Origin: Psammoneis japonica
Lineage: Eukaryota
Assembly: GCA_008632985.1 (NCBI GenBank)
Contig: QPGO01000344.1
Span: forward strand, 1-50,499
Reading direction: 5' to 3'
DNA: 50,499 nucleotides
Shown here piece after piece: positions 1 to 50,499 of the stretch. Positions within the stretch are counted from its first letter, which is position 1. Each line of letters starts with the position of its first letter. Position numbers and translations under genes: made by a program. The notes under the pieces were generated by a model. That model was given only the letters and a program-made list of their open reading frames with translations. It was not told where the DNA came from and searched no databases.

Positions 1-871
1 CCATGATGGGTGCAGAACTGAGAGCACACATGATCATGTGTGATGAACTAAAATCTTGTTCAAATCCTCAGATCAACAGTCTTGCTCTTTATTGTCCATT
101 GAGCATTCATCATCATCATCGAGAAATTTTTCGACAACGCGCGCTGTTGGCGTTGGAAGCACACATCCACCTTTTTCACTGCTGGACACTGGATTGAATC
201 CATGCGTTTGGATTTATCCCATGCCTGCCATCGCTGGATGCATTCATTCAACGGACATTTGTTTGGTCAGGAATTCCCGAATTCTCAAACATCCGAGATT
301 CCGGATTCCTCACAGCGGATTCCACCCTGGTTGGCAGACAGACCAATCCATCCGCTTGCGTCCGTCCCGCGCATGCGACACAAACCCTTCACTCTGGCCC
401 TGCTCCATGCACGCCAAGTCCACCACCTTGTGTCTGCGCTGGATTGCTGGTCTTTTGCAGTCCTGCAAGGTCCATGAGGACAACTGTGAGAGAAAGCAGT
501 TCGTGATTGTAGCCTGCATTGGGGCGAGGGGGTGCATTTCCCATGTTTGTTCATCCCTCCACAGCACCAAATTTTGCCAGCCTGATCGGGTTGTCCAACC
601 CGTGTGAAACAAGAATGGTTCGGAGGTCGTGTCCACATCCACTTGGCTTGTCAGCATGGTTTTTTTAACCCATTGCTCCACTCTCAAGCAACCCAAAGCA
701 TCACTGGCTGTGGGTCCGGACGTGCCGGCACAACTCTGCGGACCAGATGGGAAGCTTGGCACCTGACTGTGAATGGGACATCACAGCCCGGCGGCTTCTG
801 ACTCTTGAGACAGTTCAAGACTTCAAGTCAAGATTCAAGTCAAGTTTCAAGTTGTTTCAAGCTCACCCTCC

Positions 872-1317
872 TGCAACACACAGCTGCTGACAAGAGTCAA
901 TGTATCACGGCGACGTGTCACAGCCTTTAAATGTCACAAAGGGCGTGACAAAAATGACCTTTTGTCTGCATGCACACTGCATTGTGAATTCATAGCGGGG
1001 TGGTTCATCGCAACCATTGGGCAGGAGGCCAGGGGTTCGAAACCCTGAGTGGGAGTTGTCTGCAGCAACGTTGATCACTGTCGAACGCGTAAAACTCTGT
1101 GCAGTTCTGCATGTTCCTTCGCACGTACCCACACTGTTCCGCCAACAACGTGCAGTGTCGCACACGTTAGCAAAGAGCCGCATGGACGCGTGACACATGG
1201 GGAGGAGTGCAACACACAGCCACTGACAAGAGCCAATGCATCACGGCGACGTGTTGCAGCCTTTAAATGTCACAAAGGGCGTGACAAAAATGACCTTTTG
1301 TCTGCATGCATGCTGCA
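872..1317 (+). mobile_element. TRIM (miniature non-autonomous LTR element): 110-bp LTRs 872-981 and 1208-1317, 4-bp TSD CTCC
   Basis: Two TG...CA direct repeats, with purine tract ATGGGGAGGAG before the second. CTCC lies on both sides. The sister copy at ~11140 (minus) has the empty site. Confidence 0.9.
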
Positions 1318-1357
1318 CTCCGACTCCAGCTGGTTCCGACATCCACCCAGTTGCAAC

Positions 1358-2420: not shown

Positions 2421-2429
2421 CTGTTAATC
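2419..2429 (-). promoter_or_regulatory. putative primer-binding site GATTAACAGTC (also 71-81 +, 6790-6800 +, 11925-11935 -)
   Basis: The motif directly abuts an LTR end in four copies (GATCAACAGTC at 71-81). Its complement GACTGTTAATC resembles a tRNA-Asn(GTT) anticodon arm. Confidence 0.6.
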
Positions 2430-2673
2430 TGACAGAAAATGAAGATGACTGGGTGGAAGAAAACAGCAACTCCTTGCTGCTGTCTAAATGGCAGATGAGT
2501 CTCCATGCAGAGACCATCACAGGAGCTGAAAGACTGGTGTCGTGACATTGGTGCTACTGTCATTGTTCTTGTGAGCCTGTGGCTCGAAAGCAAACTACAC
2601 AGCGCGATGCGCGCGGAACTGAGAGCACACACAATTGTGTGTGACAAACCAAACTCTTGTTCAAATCCTGTCA
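2430..2673 (-). repeat. copia A LTR (~244 bp, TGACAG...CTGTCA)
   Basis: Preceded on the minus strand by PPT TGGGGAG, with a 6-bp terminal inverted repeat. Homologous to 6544-6789 and 11936-12177. Confidence 0.9.
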
Positions 2674-5600
2674 CTCCCCAGTTTGCTTGAGGGGTCAACA
2701 GCAACAGATTCAAAGTCGGATTGGTTGAAAGCCTCGGGATCAAAGTTCCAAAACATTAGAGGACGAAGGAGGTTCCAGACTTGGGAGCAACCCCAATGCT
2801 TGGTGAGGATGTCGTCTGGGATGCGGGAGCCTTTGATGAAATGAAACTTGAGGAAACCGGAGGCAATCGCCTCACGTGCACGATGGAACAAGAGGGCGGT
2901 GTGTTGCTTGTGTAACTTGGAGTGTGGGATGGCAGCACTGTCTACAACCGTCTTGTTGTCCCCGAACATGCAACATGTTTCACGAATGGGAACGCCAAGG
3001 CAATGTAAAGTGATGCGCAGATCAACAATCTGCTCAATGCACGTCCTTGCGGCAACAAACTCGGATCCATGCGTGGCAGTCTTGACTGTTGCTTGTTTCT
3101 TAGAGAACCAATTAGCCGGAAACTCATTGAGGAAATGGAGGATGCCAGTGACAGAGCGTCCAGTGAGCATGCAATGGAACAAGTTTGCATCAACGCAGTG
3201 TGTGGTGTTGACGAACTTGCCAAGCGGCTCGGGTGCATCTTGCGGGAGCAGCTCTTCTACCTCCCCATGCACAGATTGAGCCCAGTCATGCACGGGCTTG
3301 GGGAGGTCTGAATTGTCAGGCTTCTCAGTGCGCACTTGGAGGGCACCATGACGCATCTTGGAGAGGAATCCGCAGATGCATTTGGCACGGTCTAGGTGGC
3401 CTTGACAGGGCACTGCATGGAAGCTAGACAGGGACATGACAGCCGCAGCAGTGTCAATGTGACCCAGAGATGTGGCCCATTGCAGGGATCCAATCAAGGA
3501 TTGGAATTGGTGGATGCCATCCGGTTTGAGTAATTCGGAGGTGTCAAGCTCAGGGTGGTCACCCTTGTCAAGGGGTGAAAGCACATCAGTGTGGGGCTTC
3601 TCCCCAAATGGGTGCACGCAGTTGTCAACCATGCGCTCAAAGCATTTGCGGGGAGCAAGGCACAGGGTGCCGTCTGGGTCACGGGTGAAGTTGCAGCCAA
3701 GATGGAACTCCAATGGTCCAGTGCCCTTGAGCTTGAACTTGCATTTCTCCATTGGGGTGTCTGCAAAAGCATGGGGGTCCTTCATGGTGAAGGCCAGGTC
3801 GTCCACATGCACTGCCACGTGTTTGCAGTGGTCACCATTCCTGCACAGCCAGATGTCGGGTTTGGCTTTGCATGGGAAGAAGCCTTTGGCACGCAAACAA
3901 TTGCCAAAGCGTTCATGCCGTCTGAGGCCAGAGCTGCGGAATCCGTACAAGGCTTTGTGGATGACAAGGATGTGTCCTTCCAGGTCACCGAACTTGGGGC
4001 CTGCTGTGATGTGCAGTTTCTCCTTGGTCACAGCTTCGAGGTGGGCATTCCCAATGTCAGTGGCCCAGGTCTCTAGCTCATTGAGTTCAGCCAGGAAGAT
4101 CATCATTCGCAGGCCACAGAGAGACACTGCTCCAGAATGGACACTGTCGACGGGCACGTCTGTGAGGTGTCCATTGGCAACAAGCCTTGCTTTTTGCCGT
4201 CCGTCATGTTTGATGTCGTGGACAAGATGCACCCGGATCTTGCTGTGTCCTGATGGAGCACTAGCATCCTTGTGGTGTCCGCAGTCGGGGAAGACCTTGC
4301 ACTCATCAAGCTGAGTCATCTCGAGGTCCGTTGGGTCTCCCCACTTGCAGTTGCTGCTGCGCTCATCAAGGGCCATGGCATGCTTGCAGTCCCGTGGCAC
4401 TTTATGCCCGCACTTGCATTGTGGCGCAGTGCGAAAGGAGCACAACTTGGCTTGGTTGGCCATGTGGAATGGCTTCTTCTGATGAAGGGCTATCTTGCAA
4501 GAACATCTCCATCCTTTGGTTTCTAGAAGGCCATGCTCACGCGCACAGACAGCACAGGTGACGGGGCCGTCCTTGGCAATGATGGCAAGGGGTTCGGACA
4601 TGATCTCCCCATTCTCCCATTCAAGCATGACGTTGTAGCTTGAGCCTTTCCAAGAGGGATCATGGGGTTGCAATGGTCCTTCATGCAATGCAATGCATTG
4701 GAACTTCCTGAGGGTGGTGTCCTTGTCTTCTTGCTCAATGTGGTGCATGATGTCATTGCAGGCCAGGACTTCCTCGCATTTGTCATTGTTGACAGAGCAA
4801 ATGAACTTGACCAGTTCAGGATTGTCTCCGATTTTCCAGTCATGGTCCTCAGCGGCTTTGATGATGCGGGCTCTCTGGCGTTGTCCATCCTCTTGTGGCT
4901 TCATGAGGAAGGTGCATCCGATGATGTCCTCGGGGTCAAAGACCTGCATTTTGGGCATCCTGATCGCCTCCCCATCTGGTGAATCTGGCAAATCCTTGGA
5001 GTCATGGCGGGACTTGATGACAGGTTCAGCAGATTTCTCATCAGGAGAATCAAAACGCAGGTTTGGAGCAGACGGATTATGGGCGGAGCACATGTTGGAA
5101 TGGCAGAGAATCTTCTGAGTGTCATCAGAAAGAATCTTAAACGTCATTTGGTGACCAACGTGTTCAGCGATGCCAATGAAGTGACCACGCAGTTCACGGG
5201 ATTCGGACGGCCAGTCGGAATCATCCAGGTGGCAGCACATGGGTTCCCACCATTGAAAGCGGAGGAGCGGGCTGATGTCGGGAGTGGAGCCGGGTGGCAC
5301 CTTGGTGGGGGTGTGCCAGTGGAGCTTGGTGGACACCGTGTGGTTGAGCACAAAGCACATGTGCATCAGGGCGAGCAGCCAGGTGTAAGCCAGAGACCCG
5401 GGGCGATCCATGACAGTGTTGGCCATGGTCTTCACAGTTTGGCAGCGGCGTTCAGCAAAATTCTGATGCTGTTGGTGAGGCTCGCTTTGCCAACTAGAGA
5501 TGAAGAGGGCAAGAAGGATGCCAAGAACCTTGTTGCTGATCTCAAGCTGAGCACAGTCGCTGATGAGCTTGGACAGGGCACCACGGTTGCGAATGTTGTT
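2661..5600 (-). pseudogene. pol: copia A pol: integrase core/C-terminus, reverse transcriptase, RNase H (open frame, inactivated motifs)
   Basis: 991-aa ORF in INT-RT-RH order with motifs SEPHQQHQNFAERR, KARLVANGH, TDIGNAHLEA, KALYG, HVDD (for YVDD), DANLFHC..TGRS and SEFVAAR. Confidence 0.92.
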
Positions 5601-6090
5601 GGTGACAGAGCGTCCAGTGAGCATGCAATGGAACAAGTTTGCATCAACGTAGTGATGGTGACGAACTTGCCAAGCGGCTTGGGTGCATCTTGCGGGAGCA
5701 GCTCTTCTACCTCCCCATGCACAGATTGGGCCCAGTCATGCACGGGCTTGGGGAGGTCTGAATTGTCAGGCTCCTCGGTGCACACTCGGAGGGTGCCATG
5801 ACGCATCTTAGAGAGGAATCCGCAGATGCATTTGGCACAGTCTAGGTGGCCTTGGCGGGGTGCTGCACGGAAGCTGGACAGGGACATGACAGCCACAGCA
5901 ATGTCAATGCAACCTAGAGACACGGCCCATGGCAGGGATCCAATCAAGGATTGGAATTGGTGGATGCCGTCCGGTTTGAGTAATTTGGAGTTATCGAGCT
6001 CAGGGTGGTCACCCTTGTCAAGGGGTGAAAGCACATCAGTGCAGGGCTTCTCCCCAAGTGGGTGCGCGCAGTTGTCAACCATGTGCTCAA
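5601..6090 (-). pseudogene. pol: second copy of copia A RT C-terminus/RNase H fragment
   Basis: Diverged duplicate of ~3147-3640. Confidence 0.85.
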
Positions 6091-6869: not shown

Positions 6870-9800
6870 GCGAGGAGCGTGCGGAACTAAGAGCACACAT
6901 GACCATGTGTGACAAACTAAAATCTTGTTCAAATCCTGTCACTCCCCAGTTTGCTTGAGGGGTCAACAGCAACAGATTCAAAGTCGGATTGGTTGAAAGC
7001 CTTGGGATCGAAGTTCCATCGGTGACAAGCCTTGCTTTGTGCCATCCATCATGTTTGACGTCATAGACGAGATGCACCCGGATCTTCCTGTGTCCTGATG
7101 GAGCACTGGAATCCTTGTGGTGTCCGCAGTCATGGAAGACCTCGTGCTCATCAAGCTGAGTCATCTTGAGGCCTGTTGCTTCTCCCCACTTGCGGTTGCC
7201 ATTGCGCTCATCAAGGGCCATGGCATGCTTGCAGTCCCGTGGCACTTCACACCTGCACTTGTGTCGTGGGGCAGTGCAAAAGGAGCATAACTTGGCTTGG
7301 TTGGCCATGCGGAATGGCTTCTTCTGATGAAGGGCCATCTTGCAAAAATGTCTCCATCCTTTGGTTTCTAGAAGGCCATGCTCATGCGCGTAGATGGCAC
7401 AGGTGATGGGGTCATCCTTGGCAATGATGGCAAGGGGTTTGGACATGATCTCCCCATTCTTTCATTCAAGCATGACGTTGTAGCTTGAGCCTTTCCAAGA
7501 GGGATCATGGGGTTGCAATGGTCCTTCATGTGATGCGATGCATTGGAACTTCCAGAGGGTGGTGTCCTCGTCTTCTTGCTCAATGTGGCGCATGATGTCA
7601 TTGCAGGCTGGGACTTCCTCACATTTGTCATTGTTGACGGAGCAAATGAACTTGACCAGTTCAGGATTGTCTCCAATTTTCCAGTCATGGTCCTCAACGG
7701 CTTTGACGATGCGGGCTCTGTGGCATTGTCCGTCCTCTTGTGGCTTCATGAGGAAGGTGCATCTGATGACATCCTCGGGGTCAAAGACTGGCATTTTGGG
7801 CATCCTGATTGCCTCCCCATCTGGTGGATCTGGTGAATCCTTGGAGTCGTGGCGGGATTTAATGACAGGTTCAGCAGATTTCTCATCAGGAGGATCAAGA
7901 TGCAGGTTTGGAGCAGACGGATTACGGGCGGAGCGCACATTGGAATGGCAGAGAATCTTCTGAGTGTCGTCAGAAAGAATCTTAAACGTCATTTGGTGAC
8001 CAACGTGTTCAGCGATGCCAACAAAGTGACCACACAGTTCATGGAATTCGGACGGCCAGTCGGAATCATCCAGGTGGCAGTGCACGGGTTCCCACCATTG
8101 AAAGCGGAGGAGCGGGCTGATGTCAGGAGTGGAGCCAGATGGCACCTCAGTGGGGGTGCGCCAGTGGAGCTTGGTGGATGCTGTGTGGTTGAGCACAAAG
8201 CACACACACATCAGGGCAAGCAGCCACCAGGTGCAAGCCAGAGACCCGAAGCGATCCATGACAGTGTTGGCCATGGTCTTCACAGTTTGGCAGCGGCGTT
8301 CAGCAAAATTCTGATGCTGTTGGTGAAGCTTGCTTTGCCAACTAGAGATGAAGAGGGCACAAAGGATGCCAAGAACCTTGTTGCTGATCTCAAGCTGAGC
8401 ACGGTTGCTGATGAGCTTGGACGGGGCACCACGACTACAAATGTTGTCTTCGAGGTTGTTGACAAATTCTTTGGCAGTTTTGGTGCCATGCACGTCAGTG
8501 ACAAGAGATTCTGTGCCGACAAAGAGCTGGGCGCTGGTGCAACCAGAGTCAACAGCAGGGTGTCGGAGTGGACTGTGTCGGCAGCAACAGGTTCATTACG
8601 TTGGTGGACATTGAGAGCCGGGTTGGGTGATTTGCACACCTTTTTCAGGTGCATGCTGGCTGGCATGTGGGTGCACTGCGTTGTGCAATCAAAAGTGCGG
8701 CAAACGGTGTCCTTTGGGAGAAAGCCAAAGTGAGGGTGGAGGGACTCAAAGTCGGGATCCTTAGAATTGAGTTCGCACTCATGGCACTCGTAGAAGAAAT
8801 CAGATGTCGGGAGCAGGTGATCATCAAGGACGGAGTCTGTGAGCATGGCGTTGTTGACGACATGGCAGTGACAACAGCCACCAAACTCATCAAAGAGGTT
8901 GGCAGTTGGGTCGTCTTGGAGGTCAGACATGGCATCACACCACGTCTCATCATCCGTGAACTGGTGGTCAAGGACAGATGGGTCCCATGTGTCATCACCA
9001 GTGAGAATGACATGTGGCAGAGTGTCCCATTTGGCATGGGTGCACGGGCATGTGGCGATGCATGGGAGGCCGGCTTTAATGTCAATGGGAATGACGCATC
9101 CATCAATGGTGGTGACATGCTGCAGACTGTTGGGGACCTTGATGGACCGATCATTGACATCGTGTTTGCACCACTCAAGCTGGCTGCAAGAGTGCATCAT
9201 TTTCCCCTTTCCAGCGCAGGTGCACTGGTGAAGGATGGCAATGGCAGGGCCGCGTTGCATGTGAATGACACCACCGGCAGTGACAACAGGAGTGTCGACC
9301 AGTTGATGATCATCGATGCCTTGGACATCAACCGGGTGAGCAGTGCGGGCAATGACACAAACCTCATCACCGGCGATGCCACCGTTTGCACCACGATCCA
9401 CGAGAGCACTTTTGCGAGTTGACTTGTGGGTCGAGGCAGAGTAGACAACATTGTGGTTGTTGACACAATGACATTTATGGCCGTTGATCTCAATGTCAGT
9501 GTCATTGGGCTTCACGTCGGAGTGGACGGAGGGTGCAGATCCGGGCGGTTTCTTGCCAGAACGGGTGGAAGGAGGCCATTCAGGTGCCAGGAGATGTTGC
9601 AAGTTGCCGGGTGGCAGAGGCTTGCGCCTGGTGAGATGAGCCAGAATGGGGTTAGCATCAGCTGCATCCGCTGCAGCGTTGGATGGTGCAAAGGCTGATG
9701 CAAGATTGTGAGTGTTGGCGGACAAGTTGACATCGCCATCGCTGCCAATGCGGAGGTCGTGCAGGTTGACCACTGTCAAGTCGTGGCAGTTGCCAGTGTG

Positions 9801-12177
9801 GGCGGTGCACGAGCCAAGAATGATGGCCTTGGTGGACTGGGGTGAGGTGTCCCAAATGCGCTGATGGTCCAGCGGAATGTGACGCCATTGTTCCCTGGTG
9901 AGGGAATTGCCACAAGTTTGCGCAGCATGAGCTTGGATGACATCGACATCACTGTTGATGTCGAAGAATGCATCGTCATCAGGGTTGTCAGGGACCAGGT
10001 CATGTGAGCAGATGGCATGGCGCCGAGTGCAAGGAGCCATCTTGGGGGCAAATGTGCTGTTGCACTGTGTGCTGCAGCAGAAAGCAGGAGTCCACAGTGC
10101 TCTTCACAAGAGAGCCCCTTTCCATTCTGCATGCGGAGCTGATCAGCCTGATTCTTCACCAAACGGAGTTCTTTGATGGGATGAACGGCGTTCTCAAGCA
10201 TGACACGTTTCTGTCCAGCAGAGAAATGGTCCGCACCCGGGATGAGAGCTTCACACTTGCGGAGCTGGTCCTGCCAGTGGAGTGTGAAGGCATGGGTGGA
10301 TCCTTTCCAGGTGCCATCACCGAGGCGAGCAGTGGTGAGGTGTGTGAGAAGGGTCAAGGACTCCAGGGATGCATGAGTGGAAATGAGGGAATGCTTGGAG
10401 AGGTCACGACACACTGCTTGAGCATCAGAGGAGCCGACATGTTGATGAACAAGAGCCTTGCCTTTGTCATTCTGCAAGATCCGTTTGAACATGGCAAACA
10501 TGTGCTTCTGTTGTTCAGCAAACAGGGCCTTGTTCTCAGCTGTAGAGGGCTTGTACGTCGGATCGAGAATGTGTGCAACGTCCTGGGAGTGGGCCTGTGC
10601 GATGATGGAGGTGTGCCACGTGTGCCACTGTTTGTCGGACTTGAGAAGCACGAAGGCAAGCGGGTCACATTTGAAGCCTCGTTTAAAGTTGCGCACAGGA
10701 TCACATGGTTTGGGTGGCAATGAGCCAGGAGTGGGAGCAGATGGTGCTGCACCCATGGAGAGGGATGTCACATGCTCAGGACTAAGACGACAGTTGGTGA
10801 ACTCCTCGTGCGTGAACAATTGAGGGTCATTGCCAACATCTGCGCCGCCGTGCGCTTTTGCCATGTGCAGGCTAATCAGCGCAGCCATCTGTGCTTTGTA
10901 ACCACGTGGCAAGGGCATTTGATTGGTGCCGTCATTGCACACAAGGGCATCCAATTGCATTGGAGTAAAAGTGAAAAGGTCCTGATGCAAATCGGTTCCA
11001 TCAATGTTGAGGGCGGAGCGCAATGGACTGTCTGCGGCTTGATTCAGAACAGTGCCTAGAATGTGCTCGAGGCCATCAATTTGTTGTTGCCTGGTGAAAA
11101 CCATGTTGCAACTGGGTGGATGTCGGAGCCAGCTAGAGTCAGAAGGTGAGCTTGAAATGACTTGAAACTTGGCTTGAATCTTGACTTGAAGTCTTGAACT
11201 ATCTTGCAAGTCAGAAGCCGCTGGGCTGTGACATCCCGTTCGTAGTCAGGTGCTGAGCTTCCCATCCGGTCCGTAGAGTTGTGCTGGCACGTCCGGACCC
11301 GCAGCCAGCGACGCTTTGGGTTGCTTGAGAGCTAAGTGACGGGTTAAAAGCCCCTGCTGACAAGCTGGCCAGAGGTGGACAAGACCTCCAAACCGTTCTT
11401 GTTTTGTGTCGGTTGGATAACCCGATCAGGCCGGCCAAATTTGGTGCTGTGGAGGGACGAACAAACATGGGAAATGCACCCTTGCCCCAACGCAGGCTGT
11501 AATCACGAACTGCTTCCTCTCACAGTTGTCCTCATGGACCTTGCAGGACTGTAGAAGACCAGCAATCCGGTGCAGATACAAGGCGGTAGACTTGGCGTGC
11601 ACGGAGCAGGGCCAGAGTCGAGGGTTTATGTCGCGCGCGCGTGGCTGCGAGCGGATGGATTGGTCTGTCTGCCAACCAGGGTAGAACCCGCTGCAAGGAA
11701 TCCGGAATCTTGGATGTCTGAGAATTCGGGAATTCCTGACCAAACAAATGTCCGTTGAACAAACACATCCAGCAATGGCAGGTGTTGGATAAATCCAAAC
11801 GTGTGGATTCAATCCAGTGTCCAGCAGTGAAGAAGGCAGATGTGCACTTCCAACGCCAACAGTGTGTGTCGTCGAAAAATTTCTCGATGACGATGATGAA
11901 CGCTCAATGGACAATGAAGAGCAAGACTGTTAATCTGAGGATTTGAACAAGATTTTAGTTCATCACACATGATCATGTGTGCTCTTAGTTCTGCGCGCAT
12001 CATGGGATGTAGTTTGCTTTCGAGCCACAGGCTCACAAGAACAATGACAGCAGCACCGATGTCACGACACCAGTTTTTTGGCTCCTGTGACGGTCTCTGC
12101 ACGGAGACTCATCTGCCATTTAGACAGCAGCAAGGAGTTGTTGTTTTCTTCCACCCAGTCATCTTCATTTTCTGTCA
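6870..12177 (-). mobile_element. copia A near-full copy (LTR, PBS, UTR, gag from 11104, protease, integrase, RT start; RT/RNase H core deleted at ~7017; partial 3' LTR)
   Basis: ORFs 9776..11209 (Gag), 8280..10040 (protease LVDRGANGG), 7462..8493 (integrase) and 6787..7446 (RT start fused to the pol end). Confidence 0.88.
11936..12177 (+). repeat. copia A LTR in opposite orientation to the adjacent PBS/gag
   Basis: Reads TGAGGATTTG...TTTTCTGTCA on +, while the PBS at 11925-11935 and gag run on -. Confidence 0.85.
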
Positions 12178-12179
12178 GT

Positions 12180-19242: not shown

Positions 19243-19695
19243 TGCCCCATGCAAAAACAGGGTCTGAGTGCTCAGTCACAAAGAGGTTGACAATTCGTGT
19301 GTTACGAAAATTGTGAGATTATTTTAGTTAGAGTGCAAACACGCGATGGTGTCTTTTTCCAAGAAACAAGAATTCTTGTCATGTGACAAGTCATTGGAAA
19401 GACTCAAGCACAAGTCTTTTGCAACACTCATTGACACTCATGCGGAGCCAATTCGCAGGCTCACACTCGGCACTGCGTGCATCCTACGCAGACCCTTTGT
19501 GCAAGGCGAGTCTCTTGCATGATGGCCCAGTCGTGCCGGTCTCGGTTGCATGGAACTCCTGTGGCCCATCGCAGGTCTCGCACTGGGAGTCGCGTTCTCT
19601 TGCCACACGCTTCTGCGGGATCAGCGTCGCTGTGGACAGCCTGCAGACGAAGGAAAGCAGCATCATCGGCGGCTGCGGCAGGGATGCCTGCTGCA
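19243..19695 (-). repeat. 3' LTR of element B
   Basis: Direct repeat of 24861-25311, preceded by a PPT. Confidence 0.88.
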
Positions 19696-24860: not shown

Positions 24861-25311
24861 TGCCCCATGCAAAAACAGGGTCTAAGTACTCAGTCACAAA
24901 GAGGTTGATAATCGTGTGTTGTGAAAATTATAAGATCATTTTAGTCAGAGCACAAACACGCGATGGTGTCTTTTTCCAAGAAACAAGAATTCTTGTCATG
25001 CAATGAGTCATTGGAAAGACTTGAGCACAAGTCTTTTGCAACACTTGTTGACACTCATGCGGAGCCAATTTGTGGGCTCATGCTCGGCACTGCGTGCATC
25101 CTACGCAGACCCTTCGTGCAAGGCGAGTCTCTTGCACGATGGCCAGTCGTGCCGGTCTCGGTCGCATGGAACTCCTGCAGCCTGTCGCAGGTCTCGTGCT
25201 GGGAGTCGCGTTCTCTTGCCACGCGCTTCTGCGGGATCAGCATCGCTGCGGACAGCCTGCAGACACAGGAAAGTGGCATCATCGGCGGCTGCGGCAGGGA
25301 TGCCTGCTGCA
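24861..25311 (-). repeat. 5' LTR of element B
   Basis: Followed on - by TGGTGACATTG (PBS-like). Confidence 0.88.
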
Positions 25312-37299: not shown

Positions 37300-40200
37300 A
37301 CGGGTGTGTGCACTGTCGACCTCGAGTCGTGCATCAACCATTGCGCCCGAGATGCTCTCTAAAAGGTGGAACATTGGCCTGACGGCCGCTAAGAACACCC
37401 TTAGAGTGATGACCCAGGCAGGGGTCCGTAATGTCTGCACACCATCCGAAAGGAAAGTCTGGAAGAAAGCCCCTTGGCTTGAGTTCCCTGCTGTCAAGGG
37501 ACGCTTCTACTCCGACCAGATGTTTCCGAAGGTCAAATCGATGCATGGCAAGATGGGAGGAAGCGCACTTGCCAACGGAAGAGGGCATGATGGGCTCCAT
37601 CCTTGGAAGAGGAAACAGGACCACCCGGACGCTGTCATGTCATTCACACATGACGTTGGCATGCCGCAGGTCCTTGTGTCGGATGGCGCTCCGGAAATGG
37701 CAGAAGGCCAGACCAAAGAGATCTGCAAGGAATGCAGGACACACCAGGAGGTGTCCACCCCGCACAGCCCCTGGCAGAACCCAGCCAAGGCATCCATTCG
37801 TGAGTTGAAGAAAAGAGTCCGTGTGACTCTACGCCGGACTGGCGCTCACAGGCGACTTGGTCCCACAGTGCCAAATGGACATGTGACATCCAACGCATGA
37901 TTGCGACTGGCATGTCGGACATGGGAGGATGAGTCCCAGAAGAGGAGGTGACAGGTTCGACACCCGACATCTCGTCCCTCTCTCTCTTTGATTGGTGTCA
38001 ACCTGTTTGTTGCTGTGTGCCTGTGACGGAGTTCCCACACGAAAAGAAGTGCATTGGCCGTTGGCTCGGAGTGGCTGACAACTGCACTGATGACATGGCA
38101 TTCATCATTTTGCCCGAATCAGGCAAACCCATCATTTGGAAGGATGTGTGGGCCACACCGGAGGATGACCTTAAAACTCTGGCAATCCAAATGGATCTTG
38201 CATTGGTCAATCAAGCTTTGATCGAACGGCTTAGCATCCTGGAAAAGGACGCCAGTGCTGACTTCCCTGAACTCCCTGATGACTTCATGGACGAATGGGA
38301 CGATGTTGTTGAACCCGTGGAACCCGACGCTTCCCAAACCGGAAGCTGATGAGCACACCCCGGAAGGGCTAGATGAGTGTCTCACAGCTCAAGTCATGTC
38401 ACCACGCGGAGGCGAGCTGACTCATGCTAGGGTCATTGCACACAAGCGAGACAGCGACGGGGTTCCTGTTGGTGCTAGGAGTGACAAACCTGTCCCAGAC
38501 TCGAGGACATGCGATGTGGAATTTCCTGACGGATCCACTGATTCCTGCACTGCCAACGTAATTGCAGAGAACCCATTCGCTCAGATCGACTCTGAAGGGA
38601 ATGCCTGCCAGATCATGAAGGAGACAGTCGATCACCGACGTGATGCCCGTGCCGTAACGGCCGATGACGGCACATGACGACTGAGACTGGCAGGCGTGCT
38701 CCCAGGAGGATGACCGCAGGCTGGGACCCACAAGTTAAATGGAAGGATGGGACCACATCCTGGGTTCCTCTCAAGGATTTGAAGGAGTCCAATCCAGTTG
38801 AGGTTGCTGAGTGCACTGCAGCAAACAAAGTGGCCCAGTGAACCAGCCTTTAACTGACGGGGTCCGAGATGTCTTGCGTTGCAGATCAAGGATCCTGAAG
38901 AAAGTCAAATCGCGTCACTGGAAATGCACGCATGAGTTCGGAATTGAACTCCCGAAATCTGTTGAGGAAGCTGTGGAAACAGATGACAGAATGGGGACCG
39001 ACTTCTGGTTCAAGGCTGTTGAGAAGGAAATGCCACGATGACGATGCTGTGCCGGTCGGGTGCAAACATGTTGATTGTCACATGATTTTTGACATCAAGA
39101 GCACCCTCCAATGTAAAGCGAGGTTCCTGGCCAGAGGCCATCAAACCGATCCACCCAAGGAATCGACCTGTTCCAGTGTGGTGTCGCATGACAGCGTTGG
39201 GACAGCATTCACTGTGGCAGCTCTGAATGACCTGGAGGTCCTGAGCGCTGATGTTCAGAATGCCTGCTTGAACGCACACACTGGGGAAAAGTGTTGCACC
39301 ACTGCTGGCCTGGAATTTGGGAAGCAGAACGAGGGAAGGCTGGTGATCATTGTCCGTGCCTTGCATGGTCTCAAGTCTTCAGGTGCAAGATTTAGGGAAC
39401 ATGTGGCAGCTGCTCTGCAGGATGCTGGGTTCGAGTCTTGCAAGGCTGACCCGGATGTCTGGATGCGAGCTGCGGTTAAGCCGGATGGCTTCAAGTGCTG
39501 GGAATGTGTGCTTGTCTGCATGGACGACTTGTTGTGCGTCTCCCATGAACCTCAGAAGGTCATGGATTGTGTGAGCTCCAGGCACACGCTCAAGGACGGA
39601 AGTGTCTGCAAGCTGGAAGAGTGCTTGGGCGCCCAGATCAGAAAGCACCAGCTGTCTGAATCGGACAGTGAGACACACTGGGCTGTGTCCTCTGACCTTC
39701 ATGTCAAAAGGGCATTAGCTGACGTTGAATTAGAGCTTAAGAAAACTGACAGGCGTCTTCCGATGAAGGCGTCGACGCCCTTGAGCTCGGGACACAGGCC
39801 TGAACTGGATGGCTCACCTGAGTTGAACGCAAAAAACGGCTAACTGCTGTCAAGGCCTCATTGGTGTGCTGTGGTGGGCAGTTGAACTGGGACGAGTGGA
39901 CATTTTTGTCGCTGTCTTGCTCATGTCCTCCCACTTGGCAGCACCACAAGTTGGGCACCTGGACAAGGTGCTCCATGTCTTCGCATGCTTGAAGGCTCAT
40001 TCTAAGTCTGCGCCAGTGTTCAACGACACTGAGCCCGTCTTTGATGAGAGTCACTTCACCAAGTGTGATTGGGAAGAACATTGCCCTGGCGCGGCTGAAC
40101 CAATGCCGCCGAATGTGCCAGAGGCACGCGGGAATGGCGTGACTGCCACTTGCTTTGTCGATGCTGATCACGCCGGATGCCGTGTGACGCGCAGGTCCCA

Positions 40201-40607: not shown

Positions 40608-41577
40608 GTCCCAAAAGGGGACAAACCGAATGGGTTTGCCGCACAGGTGCGGCTTTTCCCACCCCCAAAATGAAAGCACTGCAACAGGGCAGCATCAGGT
40701 TGCATTTGTCTGTCGATCTGGCCCAAGCGGAGCTAGTGTCAGTTCGAGGGGACTGAACAAATGCTGATGTGCTGTCACGAACACAGGCAGTTTACATGCT
40801 GTTGGCGATTGGTCCACTGTCGCTTGTTCAGTGGCCCCAGCAGCGTAACATCGCACAATTCTAGAACCTGTTGATGCTGTTCAACACTCTGTCTTGTCTC
40901 ACACCCAATTCTTGGCCATCATGGTAGCATTCATTCACTTCAAAGGTTGATTGCACTCACATTTTCTTCTCTCTTTTTGCGGTTGGGGTTTGTTTCCAGA
41001 GTCCAGAGGGTTCTGGTTCCGAGTGCAGCTGCTCCACTGCTGAGAGAGTGGCACCGCATCATCGACCACTCTGGTTTTTGGCAAAACAGATGTCTGGACA
41101 GTTGCATCCATCAGCAGCCCGTAAGTGCAAGCTTCATTTTCCTTTTTCTGTCACATTGGACGTGTTGCTCACTTTTAACTTTGTCACATGTTGCTCATGT
41201 TTGGGAAAGGTTGAAGTGCCCCTTGTCATCCATTGGGCACCCCAGACAATCAAAAGAAGGAATGCATCATTCTGAGATTTGGCTGAGTGGTGCAGCGAAG
41301 CGATCAGTTGTGCAAATGCAGGCACAGCACCAGCGTGGGCAGAGCAGGAGATCTTGCTGTGCAACAGAAATGCAGCAGCACAACAATTTGACAATGTGGC
41401 CAAGAGGTCTCATGCACTCACTCCTTTGACCAGACTCACTTCATCTAAAGTTAAATGGCAATGGATGAGCATGGAACAAAAAGCCTTTGAAAATGTGAAG
41501 CGAACCATGTCAAAAGATGTGTCATTGTCACACCCAAATTATGACGAACCCTTTGAGATGTGTGCCAATGCGAGTGA

Positions 41578-44500
41578 CCTTACCTCCGCACATACAATGA
41601 TGACACAAATGTTGACATTTCCTCCGCAGACAGGTCTGACAGCAGGCCTGGCACTCAACCATTGCCTTGCTCCTCCCACAAGACTTTGGGCCACTGTGAA
41701 GCTCCGGCTGGAACGCAAAAGATTCACTGCAAGGCCTCAAAGAAGAAGAGTGATGATGTGGCCTTGTTTCTTTGCTCATGCCCATTAGATCGTCACAAAG
41801 CATGGACCCATTGCTTCACGTGCTGCTTGGCAGCAATGACTTGCACCCTTCCGAACACCCATTTTCTCCCCAAAGAACTGTCAGAGATCCAGAGGAAGGC
41901 CATGCGTGCAATCTTTGCGAAATGTGGACACAATCGTAACATGAAACAAGATGTCTCATTTGGCCCACATTCCCTTGGAGGTGGTGGTTTCTGGTCCATG
42001 GATGTCGAACAAGGAGTCAGCCAAGTCATGCAGTTCATGTCTCACTGGAGAGGTGTTGGTCAGCCACATGCTCTTTCATGGATCGCAGCATCTTGGGTTC
42101 AGTTCCATCTGGGTGCCGGTGTCAGCTTTTTGAAGGATGTGCACTCCCGTCCACCACATTCTGAGTCGAAATGGTTCAGTTCACTTAGATCCTTCCTCTC
42201 CCACATCAATGCTTCCTTCAACCCAGACGAACCTGGAGTCCTTCCACTTCAACGTGATGATGATCAATGTCTCATGGACATGGCACTTGACTCAAGACTT
42301 TTCTCTGACAAAGAGGTCAAATGGGTCAACTGCTGTCACCCATTTCTCAACGTCCTCACAGTTTCGGATGTCACCTCACCCGACGGCAGAGCACTTGACA
42401 AGCACAAGTTCCACGGACACACCTCAGTTCTCAGTGGCATTTCAACATTGAACCAAGTTGAACAGGCAGCCCCATCTGCTAGAGCATGGAAAACAATGGC
42501 AACGTGCCTGCAGGTTGTTGTGCAAGAATGACAATTTAGAACTTCAAGGCCCCCTTGGCTCTTGGGCAATTCCAGCGACGGAGATGTGCATGACCTTTCC
42601 AGCATGCCACGAACCCAATGAAGATTGTTTGCATGTAAAGACGTGTTCCAGTCCCAGGTGACGCACAAAACGACAATTTATTTTGAATGTAATTTATGTA
42701 TCTTTTAGTGTATGTAGCATTTTCATATAAAATACTTAGACGGATTGACTTTTATAGACCTCTAGAGTATGAACATTTAAATATTTTTTTGAGGGGTATT
42801 CAAGTCCTAATGGGATATGTATCATAAACTTCCTCAGTAGACTCAATACTGATTGTACGTCAGTAGATTTATACTGAGATTTCTTTGTAGGTAGAAAACC
42901 TACCAAGTAGCATCGTAGAAAGATATATTTAGGTAACATCCAAATAACGGCAATATTTTCGCCGAAAATCATCCGTTGTGTTACGAATCTTTTAACGCAA
43001 TGAAAAACATAGATAGCACAATAACAATGATATTGCAACACTCACACGAGTCTTGTTAGTGTTGCAAAACATTTATATTTGTATAAATCTATACTTTTGG
43101 TGGTGAAAGTTCGATCGTAAGTTAGGGACCGCGCAAAAATCGCGCAAATGTCGTTTTTGTGCACGATTTGGTTCACGTGCGGCTGGAACACGTCTAAAGT
43201 CGGACACGGGGTTTCAGGTTTTCCCCATTTCTCATGGCTCCGCCCAATCTGTCGATCCTCTCAAGGTTGCACCTGATCTGTCTCCGAGGGCTTCTCCAGC
43301 AATGGCAGATGCCAGTCGAGATGGCCGGTGGCATGTCAGACACACTGGTTCTTCATTCGACCTGCCTCCCACCATGCTGGTTCCTTCAGACTTTCAAGCT
43401 TGGCTGTCATCATTGCTGCAATGGGAGTCATTCCTCTTTGCCAACGTGCACCTGCACGCACCTGTCTTTGAGATTGCACACTGCTTGCAGATGTGCCGGT
43501 CAACAGCTGGCAGCGATGGGTCCGTCATCGGAAAATGCAGCAACTTTCGGCTGGACTCTCACCATCAACAGTGTGGCACTGGCCAACTGCACTGGTCCAG
43601 TGTTCGGTTTTTGCCTGACTTCTCACAGAGCGGAAGCATGTGGGGCACTGTCACATCTGCGATTCTTAATTTGGGTGATGGAATGTTGTTTTACAAGCTG
43701 TCCTCTGGGAAGCGACCTGTGCTGCGATAACTCAGCCATCGTTTGCCGCGTGTCAAAGTTTGAGGCACCGTTGTCAAGCTCCCCTGTTCAGGAATCAGAC
43801 TCTGCATTGCTCGACTTTCACCGCAGAAGTCACACAGCGAACACCACATCTACCGATTGGGATGTTGCCAATGAAATTTACTTGTCAATGGAAGAGATGT
43901 CTACATCATCCACTGAGAACACTCCATGCACTTCCGTCTCTGTTCAGTGGATTAAAGGACACCAGGATTCTAATGCTCCATATGAGACACTTTCTCTACC
44001 TGCTAAAGTGAACATCCGGGCTGACAAGATCACTGGACAACATCACGGAAAGTTCCAGGGCAACACCCTGCTCGTGCCGCGAATGCCTCGTTGTTCCGCG
44101 AATCTGGTCTTAAACAATTCCACAGTGGGATCCAAGTTTAAGCAGGTGATGCGATACGAAGCATCTCGCCCGGCACTTGTTCCACACATGAAAGAGAAAT
44201 GCTCATGGACAGAAGAAGTGTTTCAGTCTATAGATTGGGCTTCTCACTCCAAACTCATGTCGAGGAACATCAGACGAAAGATCAGCACGGTCAAATTGGT
44301 GCAAGATTTGCTTCCTGCCAACAAGACAGCGCATCAGTGCAACCCAAATCGCCCAGACGCTTGCACACATTGCTCACACCCAATGGAGGATCGTGATCAC
44401 ATTTTAAAATGTCCTCATGACGAGTCATGGTGCAGCATCTTCCTTCAAGGCCTGCGCAAGAAATGTGATGACATCTGCACTTCCCCTCCCTTGCGTGATC

Positions 44501-45200: not shown

Positions 45201-46020
45201 TGTGTGCCAATGCGAGTGATGCTCAATTGGGGGCAGTTGCAACTCAGAACAACCAACCCATTGCTTTCTGCAGTCACAAGTTAAATCCAGCACAGATGTG
45301 CTGCACTGCAATGGAAAAAGAACTCTTGTCCACAGTTGAGACACTTAAAGAATTCCGGAACATCCTGTTTGGCCAACAGATTAAGATGCGTGCAGATCAC
45401 AAGAATCTCACTCATAAAAATTTCACAATGGACAGAGTCATGCATTGGCAACTGATGACAGAAGAATGCAGTCCCAAAACAACCCACCTTGAGGGCAGGG
45501 CAAACGTCATTGCAGACACAATTGGCCGACTTGCTGTGAAAGAAACACCACCTGTGGAAACCTTCAGCACTGAAGATTTGGCTGAAAAGGTTGCTCCTAG
45601 ATCCTGCAACAATGTTTTTCTGTTAACACACAAAGTTCTTGACACTGAACAAAAACAGGATAAAGGCATTCTCTCCAAATTGTCCAATGAGACATTTTGT
45701 GCAAAGACTTTTTGTGGAGGCGAGCGAGACCAGTTGCTCACATGTCAAAAGGACAAAATCGTTGTTCCAAAGACGTTACAAAAAGTGGTGACAGATTGGT
45801 GCCATGTGCATCTTCTGCACCCAGGCACAAACAGGACTGAAGAAACAATCTCACAACACCTGTGGTGGTCCACCATGCGTGAAGACATGTGAAAATGCGT
45901 GTCGAAGTGTGAGACATGCCAAAAATTCAAGAAGAAACCAAAGAAACATGGGCGTTTGCCTCCTGAATGCATGGAAACCATGCCATGGGAATGACCATGT
46001 GTGGATCTCAATGGACCATG

Positions 46021-46452
46021 TGCCCCATGCATGCACCAGGCGCTGAAAAAGAAGATGTGTTACGACTTGGTCGTTGTGAAAATTGTGAGCTAGTTTAGAG
46101 CAGAGAAAATGGGATCGTGCGAATGGGGGATCTTGCCAAATCCCCATTCGTTCGCATTTGGATCGCATCAAATCGATCGTGCGTTCGCATTGTGGATCGT
46201 GCGAATCAAGCCATCACATGCCATGCACGAGTGATGTCATCGTGTGGAATCACGCCACCATCGTTGGCCAGACGACGGGCTAGTGTGCTTCACACGGATG
46301 CTCTCTTAGCATCCTTCTGGAATTGCCTGAGATCTAGAGCCACGCCTTCCTGTGGTCGTGCTTCCCAGGTGCGTGTTGACAATGCTGCGTTGCCACGTGC
46401 AAGAGGCTTGTGCACGGTCTCGCTGTGTTGTCCAGCAGCGAGGCATGCTGCA
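46021..46452 (-). repeat. gypsy C LTR (~432 bp, ends uncertain by 2 bp)
   Basis: Homologous to 26806-27237 and preceded by PPT ATGGGGGAG. Confidence 0.88.
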
Positions 46453-49400
46453 CACTCCCCCATGATCAGGGCCGTCAAGTGACAGAATGTCCCACTGGTG
46501 ACAGGGCACAATCTGCCGTAGATTGTACGCACCCATCAGCGCTCCATTCTGGGTGCGCAACGTGCCGTTGTCACACACACGGACAACTCTGGCGGGTCCT
46601 GCACAGCTGTCAGAACCGCATTTAGAGGATTGTTCCTGTTTGACAAGTGCCAATTGCCCTGCGGCATGTTGATGCTCCTTGCGTTTCTGATTTTCACGCT
46701 TGTCATTTAAGTGGACAAGCTTCTGCTTTCTGGTTTCCATGCACTTCCACTTGGCACGATGGGCAACAGATGAAACTGCATCGCGTCCAAAGACCAATTG
46801 CATGGGGCTTGCACGCGTGGTCGTGTGTGCCGCAGCTCCAATGGCGAAGGCTGCTGCGGAGAGGATGCCACTCCATGGGTCATCTTCATCCAGTTCCACA
46901 TCCTGCACTGAAAAGGAACGTACCATGTCACCAAGTGTCTGGTGCACACGCTCCACTGTGGCATTCGCCTGTGGATTTCGCTCACTCATGGGTTTCTTCA
47001 AATTCCCACAGTCATTTTTAATCATCTGGCTAAATTCTGCCATAAATTCTGTCCCACGGTCATGAACTGCCTGGGTTGGCCACGGATGTCTGCATGGCCA
47101 CGTTTGTTCAACGACGTTTGCTATGATGTCTGCGCGTTTCGTAGACACTTCTTTAATCTCAAACCACCCGGTTGCTGGGTCGATCATTGTGACTGCCCAC
47201 AATTGCAGAGTGTCCTTTCCGCGTCTTTGAATTTTACATGGCCCTGTCATGTCTGTGCACAGAGTCTCCCATGGAATTATCTCAGCGACCTTTTCTGGCA
47301 GCTTCCCATGACGCTGCATTCGGCGTTTTGTCTTCTGACATTGATTGCACTTAACGCACGTAGAATGCACCGTAGACCTCACACTGGGCCAGCAGAAGTG
47401 CTGGGCAACAGACATTTCCGTGCGTGTCTCACCTGGATGACACAGTGTCTCGTGGCACCATTCAGTTAGCGGAACCTGCAATGACTGTGGTGCTGCGATT
47501 TTGTCCTTATGACAGATTAACTGTCATGATGACCCTCCCCCACGATGCGCGTGAATGGAGTAGTCGGACGAGTCCTCAGCTCGGGAAAGTAGGCGCTTGT
47601 CCTTTTGTTGTTCTTTTTGAATGCGCTTGAAGCTAACAGGCAGAGAGACATCGTCTTGCGCGTCTGCATTAAAAGCTTCATGCAAAGGATGACTCGATGG
47701 AGTGTCTTTTACATCCGGATTGGCCTCGGAAGGCAAGCTGGGTGCTAGCCGAAGGCGACTAAGAGCGTCAGCGACTAGGTTATGGGTACCCTTAACATAG
47801 CGTAATTCGGGACCGTATTCTTCGCATATTAACCGCCAGCGCATAACGCACTCGGTATTGAATACTTTGTACGTAAGATTTTTATGATCAGTATATACAA
47901 TTATACGATGACCAAGGAGAATCGTTCGAAATTCTTTCAACGTCTCCACAATGGCGAGTAATTCTCTCTGCGTTGTTGTATAATTTAATTGCGCACTATT
48001 AAGCTTTCTGCTATAAAAGGCGATAGGTTTATCATCTTGGGATATAACTGCTCCCAATTGATATTTAGAGGCATCGGTAGGTATCACAAAGGGTTTATTA
48101 AAATCAGGATGTGATAATAAAACATCATCCGATATTACCCGTTTAACGGTTTCGAACGCCTCGTCTTCAACGGACGTCCACTCCCACTTAACAGTCTCGC
48201 TTACGAGTCGTGTTAGCGGAGCCAAGACTTCAGGACGTCTAATCCACGTGTCGCGGCAGTAGTTCACCATACCAATAAATGACCGTAGGTCGCGTTTATT
48301 GGTTGGGGTCGCGATTCGCTTAATGGCGTCGACTTTATTAGGTATTGGTCGTATTCCGTCTCTGTTAACCAGATAACCCAAGTGTTTTAATTGGGTTTGA
48401 CAGAAGTGAAGTGAGATTTAGTTGCGTTAACTTTTAGTCCTGCTTTCTGGACCCTCAATAAAACTTCTTCAAGTTTGTTGAGGTGATCTTCATAGGTGCC
48501 TTTCGTCACGACGAGAAGGTCATCTAAGTACGTTCGAACGAACGATAGATCTTCAAATAAGCCTGACATGCGTTCTTGGAAAATGTCTGGCGAATTACAT
48601 AACCCCATGGGCAATACCTGCATCTCATACTTGCCCCACGGGAAGATGAGCGTGCAGAGCTTCTTGCTATCAGCATCCAATCGGATATGATAATAGCCCA
48701 TATTTAAATCCAGAGATGTAGCCCACATAAAGCCTTCGAGCTTAAGGAGCATATCTTGGATATGAGGAATCGGATAAGGCAATCGCTTGATCCGTTTATT
48801 CAGCTCTCTGAAATCATTAATAAAGCGTACCGTTAAGTCTTTCTTCGGTATGATAAATGATGGAGCTGCCCATTGGGATCGGTTAACGCGTTTGAGAACA
48901 CCGATACGTACTAGGCGTTCTACTTCTTTACGTAGCGTAGCTTCGTATGCACGAGGTACTTTATACGGACGAGCGTGGTGTGGTTCTACACCCTCCTTGA
49001 GTTGGATGTGGTAGGGTTCTCCCTTCCATTCTCCTAATGTCCCATCAAATAAGGACTCATAGCGTTTCAATAGTGCCAAAAGGTCGTTTTGTTGAACTGT
49101 AGAAAGTTTTATTGCCTCTCGCGTTATGTCCTCGAGGCAGGCCGGCGCGTACTTATTGTCTAAAATACGTGAAATCCGGTCGGTTTCCGAAGATAAGGCT
49201 TCTGGATCTTGAAGATAGAAGGAGGTTTCCACTGTAGCATGTACGTGCCTCATTGGTACTTCTCCATTGACTAATGGCCACTCTATCATCTGTTTAGAGA
49301 AGACAATGTCAATGCCTTGTGTCTCCAGAATGTCACGTCCAATAATCATATCGTACTTGCCCAACTTTCCGTTGTGTACGTGGACGGTATGTTTAAGTTC

Positions 49401-50113
49401 TGCAGTTTCCGATAATTCTGGTAACCGAAATTTAACGGTACAGTCGTTGGACGTACTGAATGAGCCTGCTACCGTAGTCCAGTTTGTCTCAGCCGTTGAA
49501 CGGCTTCGCAGACGCTTACAGTGTCGACTATCGAGTAGAGCACTGCTGGCGCCACTGTCTACTAGCAGCAGTGCCTTAATGGTTTGAGTCTTGCCCTTGC
49601 CATGTTTAGTGTTCACAGCCACAAACAAGATTGGAGCAAGGTGAGTCTTTTTAACTCGTTTGCGGGATTGGCCTGCAACACGTGTACGATGGTAATTCAG
49701 TTGTTCATTTGTACATTCATCTGATGCATTGAAGCTGCCTGCGTCGTGTCGGCCCCCTTCTGAAGCGTCCGAATCTTCGGAATCACTTAAGTTGAGGTCG
49801 CGGAAGTGATTGAGCTCTTCCTCGCGTGCCTTGCACTTTTTCTGAGCATTGGCAAAGAACTCCTCGACCTTCGATTCGATGAGAGCATTGATGTCTTCCT
49901 CACTCCGAGGTTTTTTGTCAGGCTTGCTGCCTCCGTTGTTGGAATGTCCAGTCTTGACACGTTTCAGTTGGTTCGTGATCAATGACTCAGGATTGTCCGT
50001 TGCACATCCCCACTTGCGTGGAACCTCAGTGTGTCGGTCCAGGTTGCCTTCGGTGAGCTCGACCTGCTCGATGCGCTCGCAGAACTGCACAAATTCGGCG
50101 ATGGCATGCGCCA
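46021..50113 (-). mobile_element. gypsy C copy 2 (gag C-terminus, protease, RT, RNase H, integrase, PPT, 3' LTR); 5' end lost
   Basis: ORFs 48387..50090 (VDSGAS, SLDLNMGYYHI, YLDD), 47524..48381 (TDASKYQLGAVISQ) and 46306..47481 (integrase). A 5-bp duplication at ~48403-48413 shifts the frame. Confidence 0.93.
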
Positions 50114-50499
50114 GGCCTGTTCCAGCTCCAGGTGCTCCGCGTGGGTTCGATTCCCATCATTGGCCCATTTTTAGGTTTAGCGCAAACAACTTTTTCAAAA
50201 TCCGTTTTTTGCCAAATCGAAGGGCAAGTGTACACTTTACATGTGTTTTCGGGTGCACACTCACCTTTTGATTTTTGAAATGATCAAAAATGAAGGAGTT
50301 GATTGTGCCAAATGTGATTTTCGGCTGGTGTCCCATTCTACGTGAAAAATGCTCGTGATCACTCACTTTTTCATTTTTCGGAGCTCGTGTGTTTGGTCTT
50401 CTTCAACTCAACTGACGTCCGAACATGCCTCATTTCTGCAGACACAAACAGTTAATTTGATTGAGCGCGCCAAAAAAATGTGTCCTCTCGACTTGCCAT

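Follow-up and report, generated by a model that had tools for sequence, protein, structure and literature searches.

Near-saturated loss of TpA from integrated retrotransposons in a 50-kb repeat field, a probable case of TpA-specific hypermutation

Fungal repeat-induced point mutation (RIP) converts C to T, mostly by turning CpA into TpA (PMC2621366). RIP acts through context-specific transitions on chromosomal transposon copies, affects both strands and leaves a footprint in dinucleotide composition. TpA and stop codons are created and the G+C content (GC) is lowered. Deamination of 5-methylcytosine at CpG yields TpG and CpA. Editing by ADAR or APOBEC enzymes is a deaminase-type hypermutation of mobile elements, which acts on RNA or single-stranded cDNA and leaves strand-coordinated clusters of a single product. 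A spectrum that destroys TpA has been described in Bigelowiella natans. Here, we analyze a 50,499-bp window (the whole stretch of DNA under study, contig QPGO01000344.1, to which all coordinates refer) made up of nested and rearranged copies of long terminal repeat (LTR) retrotransposons of the copia and gypsy types. About four fifths of the TpA in the window was lost through a TpA-specific, one-hit conversion of A:T to G:C, which acts on either strand of integrated DNA and is unevenly aimed. The retrotransposons were probably hypermutated at the DNA level after integration by a process of the B. natans kind, with adenine deamination as the lead chemistry.

The mutation-accumulation lines of B. 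natans are the closest described case. There, 231 of 302 nuclear mutations fell within one giant-virus and one virophage insert, and 230 of these 231 were A to G or T to C changes, every one of those at TpA (bioRxiv 10.64898/2026.01.13.699255). According to the same preprint, the rate was ~6e-7 per site per generation in the inserts versus 3.5e-10 elsewhere (~1000-fold), a subset of lines was affected, and the main target was single-copy. The giant-virus insert has a rho of 0.45 and virophage TpA is not depleted. Coding sequences depleted in TpA are enriched in reverse transcriptase and DDE domains, and the authors (Mettrop et al.) propose an ADAT2-like adenine deaminase (10.64898/2026.01.13.699255). 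This 2026 preprint, which deals mainly with the two viral inserts and a weak long-term footprint, is the only report of a cellular erasure of TpA found in the literature, though subscription journals may hold others. An earlier note on this DNA, made from the letters alone, knew of no described pathway with such a signature, a statement that the de novo appearance of the same spectrum in B. natans has made outdated.

The window matches a B. natans-type process on every feature tested. Both share A to G and T to C transitions at TpA at ~1000 times the background, a figure that for the window was estimated with a single LTR pair. Both involve foreign or mobile DNA that is hit irregularly, with the irregularity seen among lines in B. 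natans and among copies or parts of copies here. The differences concern the stage and the surroundings. The preprint reports de novo changes in viral inserts with many TpA left, whereas the window carries a near-saturated footprint, with an observed/expected ratio (O/E) of TpA of 0.0-0.3 over ~45 kb of copia and gypsy sequence. In contrast to the inserts as reported, the window has CpG decay on top. The signature is strong and rare, and the window adds a nearly saturated example, in retrotransposons, to a type of hypermutation whose first report dates from 2026.

Dinucleotide composition carries the first part of the evidence. TpA occurs 687 times in the window (O/E 0.22), compared to 3149±45 times in 200 mononucleotide shuffles, which bears out the scarcity of TpA that the earlier note had read in these repeats. 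At a GC of 50%, CA and TG are in excess (O/E 1.62 and 1.56), CG is reduced (0.58) and AT is close to expectation (0.96). TA O/E falls below 0.3 in 85 of 100 bins of 500 bp. The deficits of TA (2465) and CG (1330) together match the excess of TG and CA (3724), which indicates that TpA was lost to TpG or CpA. The TA and CA ratios contradict a RIP signature (C:G to T:A at CpA). Unlike RIP, the process destroys TpA, removes TAA and TAG and raises GC. Stop triplets counted in six frames reflect this, with 2357 of 3207 being TGA, 501 TAA and 349 TAG. The depletion of TAA and TAG produces 73 long false reading frames of at least 150 amino acids from stop to stop, which are spread across both strands. 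Several degenerate polyproteins no longer have a Pfam match. Deamination of 5-methylcytosine at CpG gives the same TpG and CpA products and has also been active in the window, as the CG ratio indicates, but it cannot remove TpA. CG O/E of at least 0.7 is retained in 19 of the 85 TA-depleted bins, and positions 29001-30000 combine a TA O/E of 0.08-0.18 with a CG O/E of 0.88-0.96. Such near-complete TA loss with CpG intact means that CpG decay cannot explain the removal of TpA.

Context and products point to a single type of event. Transitions per site relative to a younger gypsy copy in the window reach 0.19 at TA, compared to 0.021 at AA and 0.020 at GA. Across 11 non-redundant pairs, TA faces TG at 47 sites and CA at 51, TG faces CA at 108, and TA faces CG at only 1. 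The rarity of the last class implies that a converted site is not attacked again. The near-equal single products and the lone CG fit the proposal of the earlier note that one chemistry acts on either strand. Along the sequence, TG and CA products form 91 runs, with 95.2±6.1 expected (P=0.27). Strand-coordinated tracts were considered and rejected on this non-redundant runs test. A bias for TG over CA on the sense strand was likewise rejected. The unmutated core at 47501-49500 similarly has 126 TG and 100 CA on the forward strand, and the bias may be ancestral.

The conversion can be followed site by site in a pair of gypsy reverse transcriptase (RT) segments that the earlier note had compared. 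BLAST recovers the pair as 27337-27640 (+) against 49068-48765 (-) at 88.2% identity. The younger copy has 25 TA, of which the older fragment keeps 2 and carries TG at 7, CA at 15 and CG at 1. Hence, 22 of the 23 lost sites became TG or CA, and the hand count of about 23 changed sites among 25 was accurate. Many CpG survive as the note had stated (13 of 20), and other differences affect 2 of 304 aligned columns. TAC and TAT codons for Tyr in the younger copy appear as CAC or TGC in the old fragment, and the peptide shifts from GEPYHIQL to GEPHHIQL and from PYKVPRAY to PHKVPHAC are legible directly in the codons. Over 46306-50156 (-), the younger copy, which the earlier note called intact-looking, is intact only in rough outline. 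The open reading frames (ORFs) for RNase H and integrase are separated by one in-frame stop (47524-47526), and the frame changes at ~48390-48417, in the overlap of the ORFs 48387-50156 and 47524-48417. TA depletion affects both the LTR/integrase end and the gag end of this copy.

The direction of change is set by conserved Tyr residues, as the earlier note had argued. The copia ORF at 2664-5735 (-) was aligned with 11 environmental copia proteins as outgroups (54-60% identical). Among 25 columns with Tyr in at least 9 of the 11 relatives, the ORF has Tyr in 2, Cys in 14, His in 7 and Phe in 2, while other conserved residues are retained in 437 of 537 columns (p=2e-14). In all, 21 of these 25 columns have Cys or His in place of Tyr, corresponding to TAY to TGY and TAY to CAY, and the younger gypsy copy agrees with this polarity. 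The same columns include nine changes of Arg to Cys and six of Arg to His, the mark of CpG decay. The 11 pairs of copies hold 191 differences between CG and TG or CA. The Arg changes beside the Tyr changes show that two processes are superimposed, the loss of TpA and a separate decay of CpG, and the overlay anticipated by the earlier note is therefore present.

The timing of the conversion can be read from the complete element at 19243-25311, which has AGAT (4 bp) repeated at both outer flanks. Its two LTRs, each starting with TG and ending in CA, differ in 40 of 451 aligned columns, comprising 8 differences between TA and TG or CA, 9 between CG and TG or CA, 11 double differences between TG and CA (22 columns) and 1 other. 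Common to both LTRs are only 2 TA, but 21 CG. About 30 TA-derived sites differ between the LTRs, and both products are present in each LTR. Differences at TA-derived sites between two LTRs of a single element imply conversion after insertion, and TpA changes thus accumulate in the chromosome. Taking discordant doubles as half of the double conversions, and subtracting ~0.5 expected from CpG, we estimate ~31 ancestral TpA and a loss per LTR of ~81% of TpA, ~18% of CpG and ~0.1% of other sites. From this one LTR pair only, the rate at TpA is estimated to exceed that at CpG ~8-fold and the background by a factor of about 1000. Two more direct-repeat pairs show the same classes. All 10 mismatches of the pair 34929/40760 are linked to TA or CG, and 21 of the 25 mismatches of the pair 26946/29916 belong to TA- or CG-derived classes.

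Alternatively, RNA or cDNA might have been edited before integration by an ADAR-like or other deaminase, so that copies were born mutated. Such editing would account for the spared flank at 42640-43120 and for gradients running inward from element ends. ADARs also prefer U preceding the edited A, according to the Discussion of the B. natans preprint (10.64898/2026.01.13.699255). We consider this highly improbable. Editing of RNA or of the minus strand should give one product per event, whereas both products are equally frequent here and interleaved within single copies without runs. The ~30 TA-derived differences between LTRs of one element, with both products in each, are equally difficult to reconcile with mutation before integration. 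Furthermore, B. natans is reported to acquire its spectrum while growing clonally, in viral DNA that is integrated and single-copy. Mixed products, absence of runs and action after insertion also set the window apart from ADAR and APOBEC editing in general.

The loss of TpA is patchy at short range. The RT fragment at 27337-27640 lost 23 of 25 TpA and the adjacent 27969-28900 lost 7 of 56 (p=5e-12), while divergence at other sites is equal (2/304 versus 11/932, p=0.75). CpG loss is 7 of 20 versus 5 of 54 (p=0.013). Unequal TpA loss at equal background divergence indicates irregular rather than clock-like activity. The segment 27969-28900 belongs to a second copy of the gypsy family represented by the younger copy. 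Both copies have TA-normal and CpG-rich cores spanning protease (PR), RT and RNase H, and depleted gag, integrase and LTR parts. In the younger copy, TA density declines over about 300-700 bp toward each end of the core at 47600-49750. The second copy is TA-normal at 28001-28900 and depleted from about 28900 on, and the TA boundary lies at a homologous position in both. Over 28900-29300, the two copies have 5 discordant sites in 319 aligned bp, which is intermediate between inherited and independent conversion. This mosaic may stem from partial inheritance, from recombination with a fresh element or from a spread that began at element ends and moved inward. A separate TA-normal island of ~480 bp has 53 TA within 42601-43100 and no homologue elsewhere in the window. 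Its only self-match is a short inverted repeat inside the island (43020-43079). The island may represent host DNA that was spared, an LTR or untranslated region free of mutation, or a recent insertion. The repeat-wide, RIP-like action suggested by the earlier note is hypothetical. All depleted DNA is repeat-derived, but ~2-kb cores of a high-copy gypsy family are spared (summed depth 9,000-31,000 versus about 35 for unique contigs), and the main B. natans target is single-copy.

This patchiness bears on whether the loss is targeted at all. TpA could be removed by an untargeted, genome-wide mutation bias or by selection against TpA/UpA, with the TA-normal pieces being merely young. The window offers no host gene as a control, and the correlation of TA and CG O/E across bins (Spearman 0.64) would be expected if both followed age. 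Such an explanation is very unlikely given TpA losses of 88% versus 12% at equal background divergence, and given an LTR pair with 1 difference outside the TA and CG classes in 451 columns, yet with ~80% of its TpA gone. A 1000-fold rate at every TpA of the genome would strip genes too. The 480-bp island with its 53 TA inside a depleted field, and the TA-depleted bins with high CG O/E described above (19 of 85), also disagree with a bias that follows age.

Public sequencing reads agree with the assembled sequence. Run X1 (2019) contains 56% of sampled words of 22001-32000, and Logan contigs from this run (k=31 assembly) show 0 differences over TA-depleted stretches at a k-mer depth of 28-54. 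Exact contigs of 205-733 bp cover 23624-23828, 24009-24218, 25283-25570, 26065-26414 and 30314-32000. Exact contigs at such depth indicate that noisy long reads were not their source. Summed contig depth reaches 9,000-31,000 in 11 of 14 bins of 334 bp across 25675-30350 and ~1,600-4,000 in the other 3. Unique contigs have a depth of about 30-55, and the repeats at 25675-30350 must therefore be present in very high copy number. At variant places relative to other copies, 215 of 245 differences are transitions. The earlier note had named a base-calling artefact as a way to overturn its reading. More broadly, sequencing or assembly might have introduced the signature, for example if long reads miscalled a modified base at TpA. 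The gap-free 50 kb of nested repeats does suggest a long-read assembly, and no library type is recorded for run X1. Nevertheless, an artefact is extremely unlikely in view of the exact contigs. Miscalls on mixed strands would also yield TA to CG, which occurs only once, compared to 98 single and 108 double differences. The changes instead act like inherited substitutions, being shared or unshared among copies.

The process is likely enzymatic. A single A:T to G:C transition on either strand turns TpA into TpG or CpA, after which the site drops out as a target. Action takes place in the chromosome after insertion, at an estimated ~1000 times the background and several times faster than CpG decay. 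Activity is patchy, with some copies or parts of copies nearly all converted while neighboring DNA or other cores are spared. The most plausible chemistry would be an enzymatic deamination that turns the adenine of 5'-TA into hypoxanthine, either in duplex DNA or in DNA that is transiently open, with hypoxanthine read as G in the following replication. The tRNA adenosine deaminases edit A34, the base right after the universal U33, which would amount to a natural TA reading. Affected elements would undergo missense decay (Tyr to Cys or His) without the creation of stop codons, and signals that contain TA (TATA boxes, AATAAA) would probably be lost as well.

Several points weigh against hypermutation by TpA-directed adenine deamination of transposons. 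Amphioxus ADAT2, a tRNA adenosine deaminase that can make A to I in DNA, is the one eukaryotic ADAT2 shown to edit DNA and the model for the B. natans candidate. It prefers A in 5'-GAA and C in 5'-TCG, on hairpin or single-stranded DNA (PMC10354150). As characterized there, the enzyme's preference is not for TA and does not concern TpA in duplex DNA. Targeting of transposons is itself tentative, as the case for it draws on the spared gypsy cores, the TA-normal island and outside relatives instead of the genome's own genes. Pfam recognizes no host gene in the window, and control genes from the same genome are thus missing. The outside baseline consists of 79 environmental gypsy relatives (TA O/E 0.59-1.18, median 0.79) picked by peptide motifs containing Tyr, which hypermutated relatives would escape. 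The spared cores with graded edges in two gypsy copies fit no simple targeting rule. Run X1, being of unrecorded library type, is possibly the sample from which the assembly was made or polished, and the read check, though strong, is not fully independent. An extended, palindromic preference for R-TA-Y (R, purine; Y, pyrimidine) is moderately supported. Among the 420 TpA that survive in depleted DNA, R-TA-Y is scarce (ATAT 2, ATAC/GTAT 8, GTAC 15) and Y-TA-R abundant (CTAG 35, CTAA/TTAG 93, TTAA 79). These survivors differ from the 267 TpA of TA-normal islands (chi-square p=7e-22), a reference composed of one gypsy family and the island. In a polarized test, the mutated fraction is 0.61 at R-TA-Y versus 0.43 at Y-TA-R (p=0.07). 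With respect to the deciding flank (3' pyrimidine or -2 purine), informative events split 28 to 17 (p=0.14), which settles on neither.

TpA is self-complementary, and changes of A to G and of T to C are therefore indistinguishable from sequence. The same targeted process might run on thymine, with a TET/JBP-type dioxygenase marking T as 5-hydroxymethyluracil (5hmU) or a derivative, and mispairing or faulty repair producing T to C. Such chemistry is possible but unlikely. The sequence outcome would be identical, since TpA is its own reverse complement, and the hinted palindromic preference (greatest loss at RTAY, best survival at YTAR) would suit an enzyme that reads the duplex. For a thymine route, 5hmU or 5-formyluracil would have to cause T to C changes at such rates, a presumption that counts against it. 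In dinoflagellates, 5hmU replaces T preferentially in TA and TC, is concentrated on repeats and helps to silence transposons (PMC11572971). The TA preference on transposons is thus shared with the window, whereas no hypermutation footprint is known from the dinoflagellate report. The contigs of run X1 total 141 Mb, far less than a dinoflagellate genome. The window shows no excess of T to C at TpC either, with GA to GG at the AA level (0.020 per site) when counts are collapsed onto the purine strand. Adenine deamination remains the preferred chemistry.

The window presents the end state of TpA-specific hypermutation on ordinary retrotransposons, with about 80-100% of TpA lost and sharp targeting boundaries. 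If the window represents a second lineage, the process would be a candidate for a widespread eukaryotic genome defense and a mirror image of RIP, as it raises GC and removes stops. Best matches in protein searches with the window proteins are environmental proteins at 41-61% identity, and the named relatives of one copia protein are two diatoms only (35-40% identity). No match in these searches is labelled Bigelowiella natans. Tentatively, the source may be an organism other than B. natans, possibly a stramenopile such as a diatom, in which case the process would be a widespread protist defense and no peculiarity of one alga. An undescribed enzyme would then read R-T-A-Y in duplex DNA and target retrotransposons from their ends at sub-kilobase scale. 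If true, such an enzyme would be a natural editor of adenine or thymine in double-stranded DNA. A natural A:T to G:C editor of chromosomal DNA would be of interest to base-editing research. In practice, annotation of such DNA has to contend with long false ORFs on both strands and with Tyr-dependent motifs hidden from domain searches.

Pfam identifies only copia domains (RVT_2) and gypsy domains (RVT_1, RNase H, integrase zinc domain) in the window (Table 1). The copia and gypsy assignments of the earlier note are therefore upheld. Its long interspersed nuclear element (LINE) was not recovered, as neither an endonuclease nor a stand-alone RT was matched by Pfam among 139 ORFs of at least 110 amino acids at E<=0.01. 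Rfam and tRNA scans of the window returned no RNA genes and no tRNAs. The copia-type region at 7739-11031 and its homologue at 33432-30218 differ by 100 double differences between TG and CA.

Table 1. Coordinates of retrotransposon features and TA-normal segments in the 50,499-bp window.
Feature	Position	Strand	Basis and remarks
Nested, rearranged LTR-retrotransposon copies	1..50499	.	Composition; Pfam with copia and gypsy domains only
Copia polyprotein ORF, RVT_2	2664..5735	-	Up to 60% identical to environmental copia proteins
Copia-type gag/integrase region	7739..11031	-	TA O/E 0.0-0.3; 73% identical to 33432-30218
Degenerate gypsy RT-RNase H	16324..17465	+	TA O/E ~0.08, CG O/E ~0.14
5' LTR (TG...CA) of complete element 19243-25311	19243..19695	+	BLAST self-match, LTR alignment
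3' LTR of element 19243-25311	24861..25311	+	40 mismatches to 5' LTR, 39 TA- or CG-derived
RT fragment, gypsy, heavily hypermutated	27337..27640	+	BLAST, TA and CpG site counts
Second copy of same gypsy family	27969..29091	-	94% identical to 48850-49978
Homologue of 7739-11031, most depleted in window	30218..33432	+	2 TA in 30501-33000, CG O/E 0.10-0.29
Left direct repeat (LTR-like) bracketing copia element	34929..35109	+	Partner 40760-40940
Degenerate copia RT, RVT_2	38899..39840	+	TA O/E 0.11-0.15
Right direct repeat (LTR-like) of same copia bracket	40760..40940	+	Partner 34929-35109
AT-rich TA-normal island	42640..43120	.	GC 0.27-0.39, edges <=100 bp, flanked by two TA-depleted gypsy remnants
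Younger gypsy copy, truncated by window end	46019..50499	-	ORFs, Pfam, BLAST
Younger gypsy copy, LTR	about 46019-46453	-	BLAST, ORFs
Younger gypsy copy, integrase ORF	46309-47523	-	ORF, Pfam
Younger gypsy copy, RNase H ORF	47527-48417	-	ORF, Pfam
Younger gypsy copy, TA-normal core	47600..49750	-	TA O/E 0.88-1.05, CG O/E 1.0-1.3, GC 0.43-0.46
Younger gypsy copy, gag-PR-RT ORF	48390-50156	-	ORF, Pfam

Some minor features accompany these elements. Internal ORFs of the complete element 19243-25311 (21849-23642, +) have no Pfam match at E<=0.01, and 19666-20133 (-) weakly matches Y2_Tnp (E=0.0036). A weak match to a GAF domain at 1244-1738 (-) reaches E=6e-5 and 24.0 bits, with a cut-off of 22.4, and sits inside a repeated element that is also present inverted at 10040-11143. 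The first part of the window (1-12200) holds repeat units in a complex inverted and direct layout at 87-91% identity, with the pairs 1-870/12005-11142, 1319-2420/11143-10040, 2416-3138/6803-6079 and 4170-5599/7015-8447. A unit of ~240 bp occurs four times, at 2429, 6548, 11938 and 12916.

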